Source: Escherichia coli (lineage in GTDB: Bacteria > Pseudomonadota > Gammaproteobacteria > Enterobacterales > Enterobacteriaceae). From it: a stretch of 64,000 nucleotides of DNA. Shown here piece by piece: positions 15,630 through 23,724 of this stretch; positions within the stretch are counted from its first letter, which is position 1, and every line of letters starts with the position of its first letter. A model generated the notes under the pieces. It searched no databases. It was not told where the DNA came from and worked only from the letters and a program-made list of their open reading frames with translations. The DNA is taken from NCBI RefSeq assembly GCF_051903065.1, contig NZ_CP178438.1; one strand, given 5' to 3'. The position numbers and the translations under genes were made by a program.

Positions 15630-16676
15630 TTATGCCGCATCCGCTAAAACAAACATCCCGTAAGGATGGATTTCGAGGTAATAGTGCTCACCAATATCGG
15701 GCTGTAAACGGGTGGCGTTTACTTGTAATAAAATCTCCTGTCCATGCCACTCTACGGTCACTTCGTACTGCGGCCCCATGTAGGCGACATGGCGAATAAC
15801 ACAACGCTGACTCTCTTCGCCGTGATTGCTTAAGGTGATGGCTTCCGGGCGAACGCCGACGGTGCCGCTACCTTGCGCCGGGAAATGCGCCGCGCGCGGC
15901 AGGCGATAACCGTAGATATCGACATACTCTTCGCTAAAGTTCGCCGGGAACAGGTTGGCGTCGCCCATAAAACTTGCCATAAATCGGGAGGCTGGCTGAC
16001 GATAGAGATCCTGCGGTGAGCCAATCTGCATGATGTGACCTTTATTCATCACCAACACAGTGTCGGACACCGCGAAAGCTTCACTTTGATCGTGAGTGAC
16101 GTAGAGCGACGTGATATTAAACTGCTTTTGCAGCTCGCGGATCTTATCGCGCATACTGCGGCGCAGGTTGGCATCGAGGTTACTTAACGGCTCATCAAAC
16201 AGCAGCACCTTTGGCTTGAGGATCAACGCGCGGGCCAGTGCCACACGCTGTTGCTGACCACCGGAAATCTGATCGACATAGCGGTCCTCGAAGCCTTCCA
16301 GATCCACCATTGCCAGCGCCTCCTTCACCCGCTGTTTCACTTCGCTACGCGAGACGCCAAGCATCTTCAGCCCGTAGCCAACGTTTTCACCCAGCGACAT
16401 ATGCGGGAACAGAGCGTATGACTGAAACACCATGCAGATATCGCGCTGTTGAATGGAACGATGCGTGACATCTTCGCCATCAATAAAAATTTGCCCTTCG
16501 CTCGGTTTTTCCAGCCCGGCAACCAGACGCAAAATGGTGGTTTTGCCACAGCCGGAAGGACCGAGCAGCGTCACCATTTGCCCTTGTGGAATGGTGAGAT
16601 TGATATTGTCGATAACCGTATTACTGCCGAATCGTTTAGTGACGTTGCGCAGTTCAACAAAATTTTTCTGACTCAT
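15630..16676 (-). CDS. ABC transporter ATP-binding protein (AfuC/FbpC-like)
   Basis: Walker [10 protein letters not shown], signature [15 protein letters not shown], Walker B LLFDEP; start placed at the MSQKNF ATG (16676) preceded by GGAG, with an alternative ATG at 16688 overlapping the upstream stop. Confidence 0.85.
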
Positions 16677-16687
16677 AGTGCGCTCCA

Positions 16688-18766
16688 TTACGCCTGGTTT
16701 TTGGCTTTAGAACGGGAGATACGAGCTTCTCCGATCAGCCAGTCAAAGAGGAAAATAATCGCCAGCATCACCACGATCAGAATCGAACCATAGGCGATGG
16801 CTACGCCATATTCGCCGTCTTCAACGCGGTTAAGAATGTAGGCGGTTGCCACGCGGGTGTCCGGCGTGACGAGAAAGACGATGGCGCTGACCGTCGTGAT
16901 GGCCCGCACAAAGCTGTAGATCAGGGCCGAGAGAATGGCCGGACGCAGCAGTGGCAGTAAAATGTGGGTTATGGTTCGCAAGGAACCTGCGCGCAGGCTG
17001 AGTGAGGCTTCATCCAGCGATTTGTCGATCTGCCCCAGGCCTGCAATCCCGGCGCGAATACCCACCGGAACGTTACGCATCACCATCGAGATAATCACAA
17101 TTGCCGCCGTTCCGGTGAGATAAACCGGAGCGCTGTTAAAGGCAAGAATATACGAAACGCCCGCCACCGTACCCGGTACGGCAAAGCACAGCATGGTGGT
17201 GAACTCGATGGTCTTTTTGCCTTTGAATTGTTGACGCACCACCACCCAGGCGATGAGCAGGCCAAAGATAGCGGTAATGGGAGCGGCAATCCCGGCGTAG
17301 AGCAGGGTATCCAGCAGTGAAGGCCACGCGCCGTCGCTCATTCCCTGACCAAATAGCTTGATAAAGTTATCCAGCGTCAGGGTGTAGTCCACGCCCCAGT
17401 TCACCGTGAAGCTGCCGTAGAAAATGCTGCCGTAGAGCAGGGCGTTAAAGGCAATCCATATCGCAAGTATGGCGACCACGCTCCACACCAGGGTGACCGG
17501 TAGCGGCTGGACGTCGCCACGGTAGGATTTGCCGGAAACCGTGACGTAAGAGCGTTTACCAATCCACATATACTGGATGCAGAACACCAGCAGCGAGAAC
17601 AGCAGCAGGAAAGCGCCAAGGGTGCTGGCGGCCTGATAATCCAGCTGCGAGCCGGTAATATAGAAGTAAATTTGCGTCGCCAGTACGTCGAAGTTACCGC
17701 CAAGTACCAGCGGGTTACTGAAATCAGCCAGTGACTGTACCACGACGATTAAAAAGGCATTGGCGAGTGCGGGCTTCAACAACGGCACAAACACGCCGTT
17801 AAAGGTTTGCCAGCGGCTGGCGCGCAGGGTGTAGGAGGCCTCTTCCAGCGAGGGATGAATGGTTTTAATGGCCCCGTCGAGGATCATAAATGCCATTGGC
17901 GTGAATGCCAGAACCTGTGCCAGCCAGATCCCGGTAAAACCGTACAGCCAGTTGGTGTTGGTCAGCCCAAACCACTCCACCATAAATTCCGTAACATAGC
18001 CGGAGCGCCCCATCATGAGCGTCACGCCTAAGCCGACCACAAACGGTGGCGTAACGATGGGCAAAATGGAAAAGATGCGACCAATAATGGCGCTGCGTTT
18101 AGCGATGCGCGTGGTATAAATCGCCAGCACCAGGCCGAAGAAAGTACAGCCTATCCCCACCGCTATCGACAAGACGATAGAGTTGACGATCACCTGAACA
18201 ATATGTGCCTGCGAGAGCACGGTCATAAACGCCAGCGGGGCGAACTCTCCCGCGTCGTTGGTGAACATCGGGATAAAAATGGCGATGCTCGGCCAGACGA
18301 TAAAAATGCCAATCAGCGCCACAATCGCAATCAGTGAGCCGATCACGAAGCGGTCGCCACCCAGCCATTCGAGGCGGGTTAAGGCCAGCGTCATAATCGC
18401 GCCTAGTTCGACAAACAGCACGATGGCGGCGTAGCCTAAACCGCGTCCAACCACGGTGGCGCTGATGACGATAAACGCCATACAGAGCAATGCCCAGCCG
18501 GCATCGAAATAATGACGGCTACGTTGTTCGCGCGTGGCCTCACTAAACGGGCGGACCAGCAACAGGCTCGGGAGTAAATACCACAGCCAGCTGATATTAA
18601 AATGCGACCAGCCATAAGCCTCGAGGATCTCATCACTCGTGGACTCCAGCAGGCCATAATCGAGGCTCCAGCTCGGCAACAGTATAAATGCCAGCCAGCC
18701 CAGCAAAACCCAAAGGAAAATCGCATCCCGCTTTTTCACGGGATGGAGTGCAAGTGTCTGTGACAT
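16688..18766 (-). CDS. ABC transporter permease, two fused transmembrane domains (AfuB/FbpB-like)
   Basis: About 692-aa highly hydrophobic ORF; probable ATG at 18766 ([12 protein letters not shown]); the ORF track extends to a TTG at 18817. Confidence 0.82.
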
Positions 18767-18834
18767 AGTAGTTCCGGTATGGTTGGCCGGGGCAGGCGTT
18801 TGTGCTGCACCCGGCAAATACGCCTAATGCGGGT

Positions 18835-19866
18835 TTATTTACCCATCTTCACTTCGCTGACCCATTTATTAATCAATGCCTTACGAACATCCGTGGAACC
18901 ATATTTATCCATGTCGTAGTTGATTAATTTCAGGTCGTCGAGCTTCAGCGAATTTGGCGACGTTTCGGCGGTGGTATTGGTCAGGATCTGATAAGACTTC
19001 CCTTTCTTCCACGCCAGTTCCTGAGCTTCTTTTGATAATACCCAGTCCACAAACAGTTTGGCGTTGTCGAGGTTGCGCGCGCCTTTCAGAATGCTGACGC
19101 CGCCAATTTCGTAGCCCGTACCTTCACACGGGGAAATCAACTCCAGCGGCGCGCCCTGTTCTTTTTCCAGCGAGTAGTCATGCAGGAAGCCAATACCAAT
19201 CGCCGTTTCGCCACGGGCGGCGTTACGTGCCGGGGCTATGCCTGATTTGGTGTACTGAGAGACGTTGGCGTTCAGTTGTTTTAGATAATCAAAGGCCTGA
19301 TCTTCCCCCCACAGCTGCGCAAAAGTAGCCAGGGCGGTGTAGGCAGTACCGGAACTTTGCGGATCGGCAATTTGAATTTCGCCTTTATATTCCGGTTTGG
19401 TGAGATCTTTCCAGCACTTCGGCACCGGCAGGTTTTTCTCTTTCAGACGATCGGTGTTTACGCCAAAACCGAGGATCCCCACATAAACGGCAGAGGACAG
19501 ATTCCCTTTCACTTTTGCCGGATCGCGGAATTTCTCCATGATCTGCTCAAGGGTAGGGGATTTATACGCCTGTAGCAGGCCCATCTCGCCAGCCTGCGAT
19601 TGCGGGTCTAAAGTGCCGCCGTACCAGACGTCAGCCTGGGGGTTTTTCTTTTCAGCATCGACTTTTGCCAGGGTGCTTCCGGAACCGTTGCGGATAAACG
19701 AGGTTTTTACATCATATTTCTCGCCAAACGCTTTGGTTTCGGCCTCACACATTTCATTGGTGGCGCTGCAATAGACCACCAGCCGGCCTTTTGCCTGCGC
19801 GGCACCCGTTAAAGTCGCCAGCGCAACGGCAGAAGCAATCAGAGTAGAGGTAAAGGTCATTTTCAT
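18835..19866 (-). CDS. periplasmic substrate-binding protein (AfuA/FbpA-like, likely sugar-phosphate binding)
   Basis: Starts MKMTFTSTLIASAVALATLTGAAQA (signal peptide); the ATG at 19866 overlaps the stop of the upstream MFS gene (ATGA). The longer track ORF to 20193 is a frame artefact. Confidence 0.85.
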   Translation of the reverse strand: MKMTFTSTLIASAVALATLTGAAQAKGRLVVYCSATNEMCEAETKAFGEKYDVKTSFIRNGSGSTLAKVDAEKKNPQADVWYGGTLDPQSQAGEMGLLQAYKSPTLEQIMEKFRDPAKVKGNLSSAVYVGILGFGVNTDRLKEKNLPVPKCWKDLTKPEYKGEIQIADPQSSGTAYTALATFAQLWGEDQAFDYLKQLNANVSQYTKSGIAPARNAARGETAIGIGFLHDYSLEKEQGAPLELISPCEGTGYEIGGVSILKGARNLDNAKLFVDWVLSKEAQELAWKKGKSYQILTNTTAETSPNSLKLDDLKLINYDMDKYGSTDVRKALINKWVSEVKMGK

Positions 19867-21179
19867 TGTTTTATCCTTCGAGCGTGAGTGGTGGTGATGC
19901 CCGCCATCAGTAACGGCATCAGCAGTAAACCCATAAGTACTGCGGCGACCGAGAGTAAACTGAACATTCCCGGCCAGCCGTAGCGTTCGATGACCAGCGA
20001 CAGCGGCCAGCCTGCCAGCGCCGCGCCAAGGTAAGCGAACAGGCCGAGAAATCCGGTGATTGAACCCGCCGCAGCTTTGTGCCCACACTCCACCGCCGCA
20101 AGTCCAATCAGCATTTGTGGGCCAAAGACGAAAAAGCCCACGGTAAAAAAGCACACTGCCAGCAGAGCGTAGTGATGAACCGGTGCCAGCCACAGTGCGG
20201 CGACTGACACCATCAACCCCAACGTGAACAGCAAAATCATTGGCGCTCGTTGCCCGCTAAACAGCAAATCCGATCCCCATCCGGCAAATAACGCGCCGAG
20301 TAAGCCGCCCACTTCAAACAGCATTACCGTGGCGTTGGCGCTGAGCAGGTTGACACCGTGGCTTTCCGTCAGCCAGATATTGCCCCAGTCGTTAAGCGCA
20401 ATCCGGATCACATAAACCAGTACATAAGAGACGCCCAGTAGCCAGATCAGCGGATTTTGCAGCATGGTGGTGCGCAACATTTGCCACAGCCCCATCGGCG
20501 GACTTTGTTGTTCCTGACGTAACTCCAGCGGATCGTGACGCCAGTGACCAACTGTCGGTAATCCCTCTTCCTGGGGCGTGCCTTTGAGTTGTAGCGTTAA
20601 CCAGATCCCTAATGCCATGCTGATTATCCCCGGTGTCAGCATCGCGGCCTGCCAGCCCCACCAGTGGGCGGCAAAGGCGCTAATCAGCGGAATAATCGCT
20701 CCGCCAATGTTGATCGACATATTCCAGCAGCCCCACCAGAAACCGCGCTCATTGCGTGAGTACCAGTGGGTCAGCAAGCGGGCACACGGTGGCCATCCCC
20801 AGCCCTGAAAAAAACCGTTCAGTGTCCAGACCACAAGCAGAAGCGTAAGTGATTCGCCAAAGGCAAACACCACGTTCAATAACCCGGTGGCGAACAAGCC
20901 GACGCCCATAAAACCGCGTTGTCCGTGGCTGTCATGCCACAGTCCGGCGGTAAATTTCGACAATCCGTAGCTGAGATAAAACAGCGAACCCAGCAGGCCA
21001 ATGTCGCCTTTATCCAGTCCGAGGTCGGTTTGTAGCGCCGGAAGGACGTAATTCACGCTTTTTCGCGTCAGATAAAATGCGGCGTAGCCAATAATCATGC
21101 ACATCAGCAATCGCGGACGTAATGCCCGGTAGCATTGATTAATTTCTCTCGCTGAACGCGCGTGCATGGTTGTCTCCAT
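19863..21179 (-). CDS. UhpC-like MFS sugar-phosphate sensor/transporter (organophosphate:phosphate antiporter family)
   Basis: 438-aa ORF with 12-TM MFS character and clear similarity to UhpC as recalled (GYAAFYLTRKS, FQGWGWPPCARLLTHWYSRNERG); an alternative ATG lies 4 codons downstream. Confidence 0.82.
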   Translation of the reverse strand: METTMHARSAREINQCYRALRPRLLMCMIIGYAAFYLTRKSVNYVLPALQTDLGLDKGDIGLLGSLFYLSYGLSKFTAGLWHDSHGQRGFMGVGLFATGLLNVVFAFGESLTLLLVVWTLNGFFQGWGWPPCARLLTHWYSRNERGFWWGCWNMSINIGGAIIPLISAFAAHWWGWQAAMLTPGIISMALGIWLTLQLKGTPQEEGLPTVGHWRHDPLELRQEQQSPPMGLWQMLRTTMLQNPLIWLLGVSYVLVYVIRIALNDWGNIWLTESHGVNLLSANATVMLFEVGGLLGALFAGWGSDLLFSGQRAPMILLFTLGLMVSVAALWLAPVHHYALLAVCFFTVGFFVFGPQMLIGLAAVECGHKAAAGSITGFLGLFAYLGAALAGWPLSLVIERYGWPGMFSLLSVAAVLMGLLLMPLLMAGITTTHARRIKQ

Positions 21180-21251
21180 GTTGCTGACTATATGAAAATG
21201 AAAGTGAAAGGGGATGAGAGAAAATCCGGGATACCTAAGACTTTTTCCTGG

Positions 21252-22793
21252 TTATCCGGCGATTTGTTGCAAAAATGTGGGCAAGTTAACAATTACCCGC
21301 GTGCCGTGCTGTTTTTCGAGCGTTAAGTCGCCGCCCAGGGCGCTGACGCGCTCACGCATCCCCTGAATGCCAAATCCGGCCATTTTCCCGCTGGCGATCC
21401 CCACACCGTTGTCGCTGACCTCCAGATGCAATACCTCTCCCTGCTGGCGCAGGATAATCGTCACTTCGCTGGCTTCGGCGTGTTTACAGACGTTATTGAG
21501 CAACTCCTGCAATAACCGATACAAGGTAAAGCGCACCGTTTCGTTTTCTGGTGTGGAGTTCAGTTGATAGGCAAACTGGCAATGAATGCCGCGTTCACCA
21601 AAGGCAAATTCATTAATCAGATGCAACAACGCTTCGCGAAATGTCAGTTCATCAAGCGCGGGAGGCCGCAACTGGCGCAGCAATTGGCGGGTGGAGAGAT
21701 GAATGCGGCGGGCGAGCTCATTGATTTGGCTGGCTGCGGATTGAATTTGCGCCGGATCACGCGCCCGCTTCACCAGTTGCGACTGGATCTGAATGGCGGT
21801 GATGTTCTGACCGATTTCGTCGTGCAGCTCTCGCGCCAGGTTTTTTCGCGTGTCCTCCTCGGTGTGGATCAACTTTTCCGCCAATGCCCGCCGCGCTGCC
21901 AGCTCGGCCTCCAGCCGTTGTCGGTAATGGTGCAGGTTTAGCGCCAGATGTTGCTGGCGACTGATGGCAATGCCCAGGCCAATTCCCAGCAAGGCCTGGG
22001 TCGCGAGGAAAATCTCCAGCTCCACCAGGTTACTAAAGCCCACGCCAATCTGGCGGGCGATGGTGATCATCATGCTGCCCAAAAGCCCGGAGAGTACGCC
22101 ACCTTGCCAGCCAAATTTCCACGCCATCACCACATTGGGCAAAAAGACCACGATCAACAGCAGACGCTCAATTTCAGGTGACAGCACCATCTGAGTGCCG
22201 ATACCAATGATAAAAAACAGGCTACACCAGATGATTAAAGAGGTACGCAAGGGGGGATTATGCGTATCGAGTCCCAGGAGCTGGTAGCGATGCTGCTGGC
22301 GCAGAAACTCAAAGATAAGATAGACAAACGGCGTCAGTAATACGCCGCCGGTAAATGAGGTCAAACCCGGCAGCATTATTGGGCCTGACATAAAAGGGGA
22401 GAGCAGGGCGGTATTCAACAATGAAGCTGCCGTGACAGTGGCTAACAGCAACGTCAGACGCTGCCAGTAAAGTGGAAAACGGTGCCAGAAGTTTTGCGCA
22501 AGGAGGACAGGAAACAGGCTAATAACCGGCGTTGCCAGCATGAGATAACCGTTCAATAGCTGCTCACTATGGAGCCAGAACATCATCAGCAAAGGGGGGA
22601 GTACCAACGCAGGCCAGTAGCGGCGAGAGAGCAAAATAACAAGGGCGAGATAAACTCCCTGCGGGAGAAACAACACCGCCTGTTGACCGTTATTGGTCAG
22701 ATAAAAGCTGAGCGTCCACAGCATCAGCCAGCCGGTTCCCCAGGCCAACACAATAAACAGCGAAATCACCCAATGACGAAGATTGCGCGACAT
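21252..22793 (-). CDS. UhpB-like sensor histidine kinase (MASE1 membrane domain plus HisKA_3/HATPase)
   Basis: 513-aa ORF; the C-terminus has an H-box (RELHDEIGQNITAI) and ATPase motifs (DNGVGI, GFGIQGMRERV), similar to UhpB as recalled. Confidence 0.85.
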   Translation of the reverse strand: MSRNLRHWVISLFIVLAWGTGWLMLWTLSFYLTNNGQQAVLFLPQGVYLALVILLSRRYWPALVLPPLLMMFWLHSEQLLNGYLMLATPVISLFPVLLAQNFWHRFPLYWQRLTLLLATVTAASLLNTALLSPFMSGPIMLPGLTSFTGGVLLTPFVYLIFEFLRQQHRYQLLGLDTHNPPLRTSLIIWCSLFFIIGIGTQMVLSPEIERLLLIVVFLPNVVMAWKFGWQGGVLSGLLGSMMITIARQIGVGFSNLVELEIFLATQALLGIGLGIAISRQQHLALNLHHYRQRLEAELAARRALAEKLIHTEEDTRKNLARELHDEIGQNITAIQIQSQLVKRARDPAQIQSAASQINELARRIHLSTRQLLRQLRPPALDELTFREALLHLINEFAFGERGIHCQFAYQLNSTPENETVRFTLYRLLQELLNNVCKHAEASEVTIILRQQGEVLHLEVSDNGVGIASGKMAGFGIQGMRERVSALGGDLTLEKQHGTRVIVNLPTFLQQIAG

Positions 22794-23422
22794 TAATGCC
22801 CCGCCAGCAGATGGTGGTCGAGCGCAAAATGTACCAGTTCAATGGTGCTATGGCAGTTCAGTTTTCCCAGCACATTGGCGCGATGCACATGTACCGTTTT
22901 ATGACTGAGTTCGAGTTTAAAGGCGATCTCTTTAACGCTGTCTCCTTTGACCAGTAAATCAAACACTTCACGTTCTCGTGGGGTGAGAATTTCCAGCGCC
23001 TGGGCGGGTTGCCCGCCGCCGCGTAAAGCCCGAATCGCATCGGCACAGAGATAATGCCCGCCCAGCCCGACCGAGCGCACCGCCTGTACTAACTCTTCCG
23101 GCCCACAGCGTTTGGTTAAATACCCGCTGGCACCGGCATCCAGCGCGCTTTGCACAAAGGTTGGCGCGTCATAAATGCTAAGAATAATGGCGCGAAATTG
23201 CGGTTTTTGTGCACGCAGGCGCTTAAGCAAACTGAGGCCGTTTTCGTCCGGCATGGCAATATCAATGACGGCAACATTGACGTCATCACGGATTAATGCC
23301 GACCATGCCTGCGCGGCACTACTGTACTGACCAATGACCTCCAGATCGTCTTCCAGAGAGAGTAATTGTGCGAAGCCAGAGCGCACCACCACATGGTCAT
23401 CCACCAGCACTACCCGAATCAT
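22793..23422 (-). CDS. UhpA-like response regulator (NarL/LuxR family)
   Basis: 209-aa ORF (MIRVVLVDDHVVVRSGFAQLL...) with a C-terminal LuxR HTH (LTPREREVFDLLVKGDSVKEIAFKLELSHKTVHVHRANVLGKL); 1-nt TAATG overlap with the kinase gene. Confidence 0.88.
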   Translation of the reverse strand: MIRVVLVDDHVVVRSGFAQLLSLEDDLEVIGQYSSAAQAWSALIRDDVNVAVIDIAMPDENGLSLLKRLRAQKPQFRAIILSIYDAPTFVQSALDAGASGYLTKRCGPEELVQAVRSVGLGGHYLCADAIRALRGGGQPAQALEILTPREREVFDLLVKGDSVKEIAFKLELSHKTVHVHRANVLGKLNCHSTIELVHFALDHHLLAGH

Positions 23423-23724
23423 ACTTTTCTTCTCTTATTATCTAATTCTCCTATCATGCATCACGGCGCGGCGCTGGCAATCAACCAGCGACAGATATGG
23501 AATGGATGTAACAAAATGGCAATAATTTGCCGGAGCGCGCACATCTTATCTGGCTTGTGAACCGGCGGGATACGTTCGCCAAAACCGCAAAATGCGCAAA
23601 CTCGCTAACCATTGCCGATTTTTTTCTAAAAACGCTTTGTTCTTAACAAGACCTTTTAATTCCTTTATCAAACTGACCCGCAACGAAATACTGCTCCCAT
23701 AACAAGACAGGGGAGCAGACAATC

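Follow-up and report, generated by a model that had tools for sequence, protein, structure and literature searches.

We analysed a stretch of 64,000 nucleotides from an Escherichia coli chromosome (RefSeq assembly GCF_051903065.1, contig NZ_CP178438.1), referred to below as the window, in which six minus-strand genes lie between frmR and tauA: fusR, fusK, z0461, afuA, afuB and afuC. Judged from its sequence, this cluster is O-island 20 (OI-20) of enterohaemorrhagic E. coli (EHEC), which holds the response regulator and kinase FusKR, the Z0461 protein, which belongs to the major facilitator superfamily (MFS), and the AfuABC importer. A preliminary description of the window spoke of a "uhp/afu operon" and missed that this is the published FusKR/Z0461/AfuABC island. 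We found that the 72-bp gap between fusK and z0461 carries conserved elements laid out like those of the uhpT promoter, and we estimate at roughly 0.7 the probability that the gap is a uhpT-type, activator-dependent sigma-70 promoter driving z0461 and afuABC. With a conserved promoter of this type in the gap, FusKR probably turns on the adjacent importer of sugar phosphates at this site. FusKR is often cited as a case in which a pathogen senses a sugar released by the microbiota, and AfuABC is a colonisation factor; what follows is a purely computational re-reading of a well-known virulence-associated sensor. The novelty would lie in a known kind of promoter with changed wiring, the sensor gene being inside the regulated unit and the output being an ATP-binding cassette (ABC) importer.

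Conserved elements in the fusK-z0461 gap

Gene calls were based on the list of open reading frames (ORFs) and on the RefSeq annotation of the E. coli 23CRST027 chromosome, which is 100% identical over 8.3 kb. By these calls, both gaps that the preliminary description had proposed as sites of the regulated promoter are real: 72 bp between fusK and z0461 (21180..21251) and 68 bp between afuA and afuB (18767..18834). A scan of one genome per species yielded 322 relatives of the kinase, of which we analysed the best 80, with kinase identities ranging from 95% to 57%. These best 80 include loci from Escherichia, Klebsiella, Raoultella, Citrobacter, Serratia, Enterobacter and Leclercia, as well as from Kosakonia, Atlantibacter, Buttiauxella, Edwardsiella, Photorhabdus, Rahnella and Ewingella. 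Conservation in the gap is given throughout as the fraction of the major base over 79 distinct sequences. The elements in the gap and at its two edges are the following:

21273..21294, minus strand: CRP-like 22-mer AATTGTTAACTTGCCCACATTT, inside the last fusK codons; centre 21283.5, equivalent to -103.5 if the -10 hexamer is placed at -12..-7
21264..21272, minus strand: conserved block TTGCAACAA, lying between the CRP-like site and the stop codon of fusK; mean major-base fraction 0.88
21235..21251, minus strand: S box, a 17-bp UhpA-type palindrome of 7-3-7 form, CCAGGAAAAAGTCTTAG, directly after the kinase stop codon; centre 21243, about -63
21214..21230, minus strand: W box, a degenerate and weaker 7-3-7 site, CCCGGATTTTCTCTCAT, over the -35 region; centre 21222 (-42)
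21212..21219, minus strand: invariant block TCTCATCC; major-base fraction 0.97
21187..21192, minus strand: predicted -10 hexamer, TATAGT
21165..21176, minus strand: Shine-Dalgarno sequence GGAG (21176..21173) and MFS start codon ATG (21167..21165), both conserved across genera

The S box has a major-base fraction of 0.93 across the 79 loci. In E. coli it is an imperfect palindrome (CCAGGAAAAAGTCTTAG), and in distant genera it is perfect (CTAGGAATAATTCCTAG, CCAGGAAAAATTCCTGG); the 7-3-7 consensus from the fus loci is CYARGAA-N3-kTCYTRG. A pattern derived from these boxes occurred once per locus, always at the junction of fusK and the MFS gene. Thus, the preliminary description, which could not recognise a UhpA box by eye, had overlooked a UhpA-type box at 21251..21235. 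Downstream, the -10 hexamer is kept as TAyAnT in all loci (fraction 0.91). The linker, the spacer and the kinase tail drift, with fractions of 0.64-0.72; the baseline for synonymous codons in fusK is 0.666. The -35 sequence, 17 bp upstream of the -10 hexamer, is ATCCCC, which is very poor; together with the weak box that lies over it, this gives the layout of an activator-dependent promoter. Transcription is predicted to start near 21180. RefSeq begins the MFS gene at an ATG at 21179. Most genera lack this ATG, which overlaps the Shine-Dalgarno sequence; the one that is conserved, at 21167, lies four codons downstream. The conservation of GGAG and of this second ATG suggests that the functional gap is ~84 bp long.

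The same sequences might instead act at the level of RNA, with no internal promoter: they might, for instance, terminate or attenuate fusRK transcription, direct RNA processing or influence translation. A terminator scan did flag a weak stem with a run of T after it at 21300..21279, and the S-box palindrome could fold. However, terminator-like matches in the region occur at the chance level (11 found, 11.6 expected), and in most genera neither of the two putative stems is intact. The RNA of the 72-bp gap is unstructured, folding no better than shuffled sequences (-6.7 kcal/mol, z = +0.28) and containing no terminator. What is conserved is the primary sequence, loop bases included. We consider a purely RNA-level function extremely unlikely. 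We also considered, and rejected, hairpins formed by the S box and by the element at the 3' end of fusK: they show no compensatory change, and 279 of 500 shuffles do as well. At the CRP-like site, there was no covariation for a hairpin.

Correspondence with uhpT promoters

We compared the gap with the uhpT promoter (PuhpT) of E. coli K-12 and with five others, from Enterobacter, a related metagenomic contig, Plesiomonas, Vibrio vulnificus and another contig. In each of the six, a box of the CTAGGAA-N3-TTCCTAG type lies upstream of uhpT, at the UhpA site known from experiments. A consensus built from the uhpT promoters alone has a single match in the 64 kb, at 21235..21251, with 1 mismatch, where 0.06 matches would be expected. 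The motif search that the preliminary description had proposed, run with this uhpT-derived consensus, thus leads to one place in the window, and that place is in the 72-bp gap. The preliminary description had also started from the premise that no uhpT promoter is present; it was right that the cluster has no uhpT gene, but wrong in substance, as sequence of the uhpT-promoter type does occur. Of the places it considered for the action of the UhpA-like regulator, the 72-bp gap emerges as the most likely, with a box, a weak second box and a -10 hexamer in the register of PuhpT.

In K-12 PuhpT, the -10 hexamer TACAAT sets the coordinates, and the box, CTAAGAAATTTTCCAGG, lies at -72..-56, in the centre of the stretch to which UhpA binds strongly. 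The limits of the UhpA sites there are reportedly -80, -50 and -32 in the papers of Kadner. When the two promoter families were aligned on the palindrome, the CRP or CRP-like site, the S box, a CYWRG half-site, the TCTCA motif and the -10 hexamer all fell in register. The distance from the CRP or CRP-like site to the centre of the palindrome is 40.5 bp in the fus promoter and 39.5 bp in the uhpT promoter, and that from the centre to the -10 hexamer is 51 bp and 52 bp, respectively. In both families, the CYWRG half-site follows the palindrome after 4-5 bp and TCTCA(T/G) after 15-16 bp. TCTCA lies at -39..-35 in both the fus promoter and K-12 PuhpT; in the uhpT promoters of Vibrio and Plesiomonas, TCTCATG stands at the corresponding place. 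Compared with the K-12 uhpT box in reverse complement, the S box of E. coli agrees at 14 of 17 positions. A hidden Markov model (HMM) of the gap gave as its top matches the uhpT promoter of Plesiomonas (E = 8.7e-5) and that of locus L088 (E = 5e-3).

Like the K-12 uhpT promoter, the region of the gap thus combines a 17-bp box near -64, a weak site with TCTCA over the -35 region, a poor -35 sequence, a good -10 hexamer and a CRP or CRP-like site 91.5 bp upstream of the -10 hexamer, and the regulators share an identical recognition helix. At uhpT, UhpA is indispensable (PMC4790336, PMC5352689). It occupies a strong site and a weak one next to it (PMC4790336). CRP, bound to an inverted repeat with its centre at -103, some 30 bp upstream of the UhpA site, only assists UhpA (PMC5352689). 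The wiring differs. Unlike the uhpT promoter, the fus promoter would drive a uhpC-like sensor gene and an ABC importer rather than the UhpT antiporter. Its position is between the genes for the kinase and the sensor and not after the sensor gene, which places the sensor inside the regulated unit. No uhpT gene follows the uhpC-like gene, and the output would be afuABC. In contrast to the uhpT site, the CRP-like site lies within coding sequence and its half-sites depart from the consensus; the fus promoter as a whole is a prediction from sequence.

The recognition helix of FusR, KTVHVHRAN, is identical in the UhpA proteins of K-12, Plesiomonas and Vibrio, and is invariant across 79 FusR orthologues. 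With boxes that are also nearly identical, cross-talk between FusR and UhpA is possible. This raises the question of whether canonical UhpA might be the main user of the boxes, or an equal one, so that glucose-6-phosphate sensed by UhpBC would induce afuABC, with FusR binding only secondarily or in competition. The identical helices and the 14 of 17 matching positions are compatible with such an arrangement, as is the presence of PuhpT in 5416 of 5426 E. coli genomes, from which it follows that the Uhp and Fus systems coexist. However, in every locus the box occurs in strict linkage with fusRK, as part of a six-gene unit, which argues that its cognate regulator is the adjacent one; moreover, no cross-activation of PuhpT was observed in a uhpA deletion mutant of O157:H7 Sakai, a serotype that carries fusR. 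We regard a leading or equal role for UhpA as improbable.

Among the uhpT genes that we encountered, that of Tatumella sp. TA1 lacks both an adjacent uhpABC and a UhpA-type box, and has a good CRP-like site (AAATGTGACCTTTATCGCA). Its sequence suggests that uhpT is regulated differently in this organism.

A CRP-like site within the 3' end of fusK

The CRP-like site is the sole sequence in the 64 kb with at most 2 mismatches to the CRP consensus, where 0.19 would be expected. Its half-sites, TGTTA and CCACA, are non-consensus. Its mean major-base fraction is 0.93, with 16 of its 22 columns at least 95% conserved. Codons 500-510 of fusK, a gene of 513 codons, form the window of highest synonymous constraint in the gene (0.947, against a mean of 0.666), a value that none of 20000 permutations reached. 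The adjoining TTGCAACAA block coincides with codons 508-510, whose synonymous conservation is 0.94-0.98; the block is not conserved in Photorhabdus. Since these elements lie in the kinase gene, fusK deletion mutants may lack an upstream element of the adjacent promoter.

Activation or repression by FusR

Several observations weigh against our interpretation of the gap. In minimal medium with fucose, FusKR is reported to repress z0461 as well as the fuc genes (Pacheco 2012, as cited in PMC6199705). Later papers citing this work also report that FusK senses fucose, not sugar phosphates, and that FusKR represses ler. The published FusR-protected sequence at ler matches the box at 9 of 14 positions, where shuffled sequences average 7.9, and so does not resemble it. 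A uhpA deletion mutant of O157:H7 Sakai has no detectable uhpT promoter activity (PMC5352689); as O157:H7 strains carry FusR, FusR was inactive, or did not cross-react, on a near-identical box under those conditions. The gap HMM found K-12 PuhpT at the right place but without significance (E = 0.15 to 4), and the likeness to this promoter, as far as sequence goes, lies in short elements and in how they are spaced. Relative to uhpT promoters, the S box lies 1 bp closer to the -10 hexamer. In the CRP-like site, the non-consensus T of TGTTA is invariant even though a synonymous G would improve the match, suggesting that the binder may be a protein other than CRP. Lastly, a generic scan for promoters and terminators between 15000 and 24000 gave matches at the chance level and flagged only the fusR promoter; with no match in the 72-bp gap, it lends our interpretation no support. 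An activator-dependent promoter with a poor -35 sequence would, however, be expected to escape such a scan.

The reported repression of z0461 and fuc would fit an arrangement in which the boxes are an operator, where FusR bound at -63 and -42 blocks polymerase and represses z0461-afuABC, the promoter being otherwise constitutive or governed by CRP only. The W box, lying over the -35 region, occupies a position that is also suited to repression. With a -35 sequence as poor as ATCCCC, however, little activity is to be expected of the promoter unless an activator is present. The layout also copies that of a promoter whose homologous regulator is an obligate activator, with CRP at -103 only helping. 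Furthermore, RNA-seq of strain EDL933 found that Z0459, Z0461, Z0462 and Z0463 rise together, that is, that regulator and target transcripts increase in parallel. A fusK deletion could also mimic derepression, by removing the CRP-like site or by raising read-through. We therefore consider an operator unlikely, and the anatomy of the promoter argues for activation over the reported repression. Unlike the published EHEC FusKR, with its response to fucose, its repression of ler, z0461 and fuc, and its restriction to EHEC, the system seen here has as its sole conserved UhpA-type site a predicted promoter internal to its own cluster.

In the literature that we searched, neither a link between FusR and a uhp-type promoter nor the regulation of afuABC is described. 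Sit et al. (2015) did not address regulation, and only remarked on the proximity of AfuABC to FusKR (PMC4546632).

A model for sugar-phosphate control of z0461-afuABC

We propose that a phosphorylated FusR dimer would bind the strong 17-bp palindrome at about -63, and that FusR would then bind cooperatively to the weak -42 box over ATCCCC, so that polymerase is recruited to TATAGT. Transcription from a start near 21180 would give a short leader carrying GGAG and the ATG at 21167. CRP or a similar factor, bound at -103.5 in the last fusK codons, may add catabolite control, as CAP (the catabolite activator protein) does at uhpT. Since the gap contains no terminator, read-through from the fusR promoter can supply a basal level of the sensor, and induction would then create positive feedback. 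The transcript would span z0461 and afuA and would be attenuated or stabilised at a hairpin ahead of afuBC. The inducer is probably a hexose phosphate, sensed through Z0461. We thus predict that transcription of z0461-afuABC is sugar-phosphate-inducible, FusR-dependent and probably CRP-dependent, and the location of a UhpA-type promoter between fusK and z0461 offers concrete bases to mutate.

More tentatively, and at slightly less than even odds, FusK, FusR and Z0461 may be by ancestry a three-component sugar-phosphate sensor of the Uhp kind whose primary conserved target is its own z0461-afuABC operon, reached through the uhpT-type promoter. The fucose and ler circuit of EHEC would then be a lineage-specific overlay or a secondary activity of low specificity, and in the ~10% of E. 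coli with both systems, FusR and UhpA could cross-talk at the level of DNA binding.

Genes and proteins of the cluster

The six genes are as follows:

22793..23422, minus strand: fusR, a NarL/UhpA-family response regulator, orthologue of EHEC Z0463
21252..22793, minus strand: fusK, a MASE1 histidine kinase (RefSeq), paralogue of UhpB and orthologue of EHEC Z0462
19863..21179, minus strand: z0461, a uhpC-like MFS sensor or transporter; probable true start at 21167
18835..19866, minus strand: afuA, a periplasmic sugar-phosphate binding protein, matching structures 4R72-4R75 (E = 1e-168)
16688..18766, minus strand: afuB, a permease (RefSeq, NCBIfam)
15630..16676, minus strand: afuC, an ATPase (RefSeq, NCBIfam)

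The response regulator, the kinase (MASE1/HisKA_3) and a UhpC-type MFS sensor are encoded together, as in UhpABC three-component sensors. FusR is 48% identical to K-12 UhpA and scores 193 bits against the NCBIfam UhpA equivalog model, below its cut-off of 258, and FusK is 35% identical to K-12 UhpB over the full length and scores 380 bits against the UhpB model, below its cut-off of 408. Having missed both equivalog cut-offs, FusR and FusK are best described as paralogues and not as the same system as UhpABC. Z0461, by comparison, passes the UhpC model (587 bits, cut-off 564). It is 53% identical to K-12 UhpC, with two arginines of the organophosphate family aligned (in TRKS and VIRIA). As in GlpT and UhpT, two such arginines are typical of relatives of the organophosphate:phosphate antiporters. 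AfuABC imports glucose-6-phosphate, fructose-6-phosphate and sedoheptulose-7-phosphate, the orthologue from the Citrobacter rodentium island having been shown to be a sugar-phosphate transporter (PMC4546632, Sit et al. 2015).

In the window, z0461 overlaps afuA by 4 nt, and in 77 of 78 loci the distance between the MFS gene and afuA is -4 to 44 nt, indicating that these genes are co-transcribed as a single operon. According to the preliminary description, the 72-bp and 68-bp gaps were the only non-overlapping junctions. Both are confirmed, but they are not the only ones: RefSeq has an 11-bp gap between afuB and afuC (16677..16687). The afuC start at 16676 follows RefSeq and an NCBIfam alignment; the longest ORF would overlap afuB by one base.

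The region upstream of fusR

The preliminary description had named the region upstream of the regulator gene as another place where the regulator might act. One feature stands out in this region:

23453..23531, minus strand: fusR promoter region, with a -35 sequence TTGCCA (23480..23475), 16-bp spacing and a -10 sequence CATGAT (23458..23453)

This sigma-70-like promoter is conserved, and cross-genus conservation ends ~110 bp upstream of fusR. In all loci searched, we found no UhpA-type box upstream of fusR, before afuA or in the afuA-afuB gap. Thus, fusR appears to have a conserved promoter of its own that does not include the proposed regulator site. QseB and QseF have been reported to be repressors of fusKR. 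Further upstream, on the minus strand at 23506..23531, lie two blocks with cross-genus conservation, namely the palindrome GGCAAATTATTGCC and the block ATTTTGTTACAT. For the latter, the consensus can be written as GTTACAT-TC-GTTACAT or as TGTTA-N6-TTACA, and its TGTTA half-site is shared with the CRP-like site in fusK.

The afuA-afuB gap

Another possibility is that the 68-bp gap holds the regulated promoter or an additional one. The junction is genuinely non-coding, and a gap persists there in all genera, at lengths of 53-259 bp. Its main feature is the following:

18786..18815, minus strand: GC-rich hairpin resembling a repetitive extragenic palindromic (REP) element, in the 68-bp afuA-afuB gap; centroid GCCGGG...CCCGGC

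The minimum free energy of the gap is -22 kcal/mol, a modest difference from shuffled sequences (z = -1.4). A hairpin is found at the afuA-afuB junction in every genus, built from unrelated sequences: REP elements, paired REP elements, or terminator-like structures with a U-run. The copies in Citrobacter and Klebsiella resemble canonical REP elements, and that in the window is a degenerate single REP-like unit. A search of Rfam returned two matches only, both below threshold, one of them in the 68-bp gap, to the REP-derived naRNA4 (E = 0.16). Related 43-mers occur in 1432 E. coli genomes, which is more than the 519 that have the island.

Hairpins of the REP or intercistronic type separate binding-protein and permease genes elsewhere, as between malE and malF. 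Like these, the afuA-afuB hairpin is a GC-rich imperfect palindrome directly 3' of the binding-protein gene. The cross-genus pattern fits an element acting on the mRNA to determine how much binding protein is made relative to the membrane components, and does not fit a promoter. The hairpin most likely protects the upstream message or partly terminates transcription, so that more AfuA than AfuBC would be made. A promoter in this gap is very unlikely: the gap is REP-like and has neither a UhpA-type box nor a promoter-like match, and what is conserved between lineages is the presence of a GC-rich hairpin, with a U-run in some of them, not its sequence. The second gap proposed in the preliminary description thus drops out as a site for the regulator.

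Distribution of the module

The order fusR-fusK-mfs-afuA-afuB-afuC is kept in all 80 loci. We identified the module in 519 of 5426 complete E. coli genomes (~10%) and, counted as kinase relatives, in 322 species-level genomes of Enterobacterales. The promoter region of the window (21150..21330) is identical to that of EHEC strain 86-24, which has the same frmR...tauA neighbours, and is 99.3% identical to that of many O157:H7 genomes. Reviews describe FusKR as specific or confined to EHEC O157:H7, and it is stated elsewhere to have been acquired from E. faecalis. Neither confinement to O157:H7 nor an E. faecalis origin fits the numbers of E. coli genomes and Enterobacterales species that carry the module. 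We conclude that the module is a widespread nutrient-uptake unit of the Enterobacterales and not an EHEC-specific acquisition. Module-bearing E. coli isolates come from human faeces, meat, wastewater and marine sediment.

In one of the 80 loci, that of Raoultella planticola (L076, 8543-8833), the fusK-mfs gap holds an insertion of ~194 bp between the W box and the -10 hexamer, with the TATA sequence duplicated. The insertion resembles the elements known as enterobacterial repetitive intergenic consensus (ERIC) or intergenic repeat units (IRU), and contains AAGTAAGTGACTGGGGTGAGTAAG; it is a natural disruption of the promoter. Similar ERIC/IRU-like elements are present in the mfs-afuA gap of a Klebsiella sp. 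(L061) and in the afuA-afuB gap of a Photorhabdus locus (L072).

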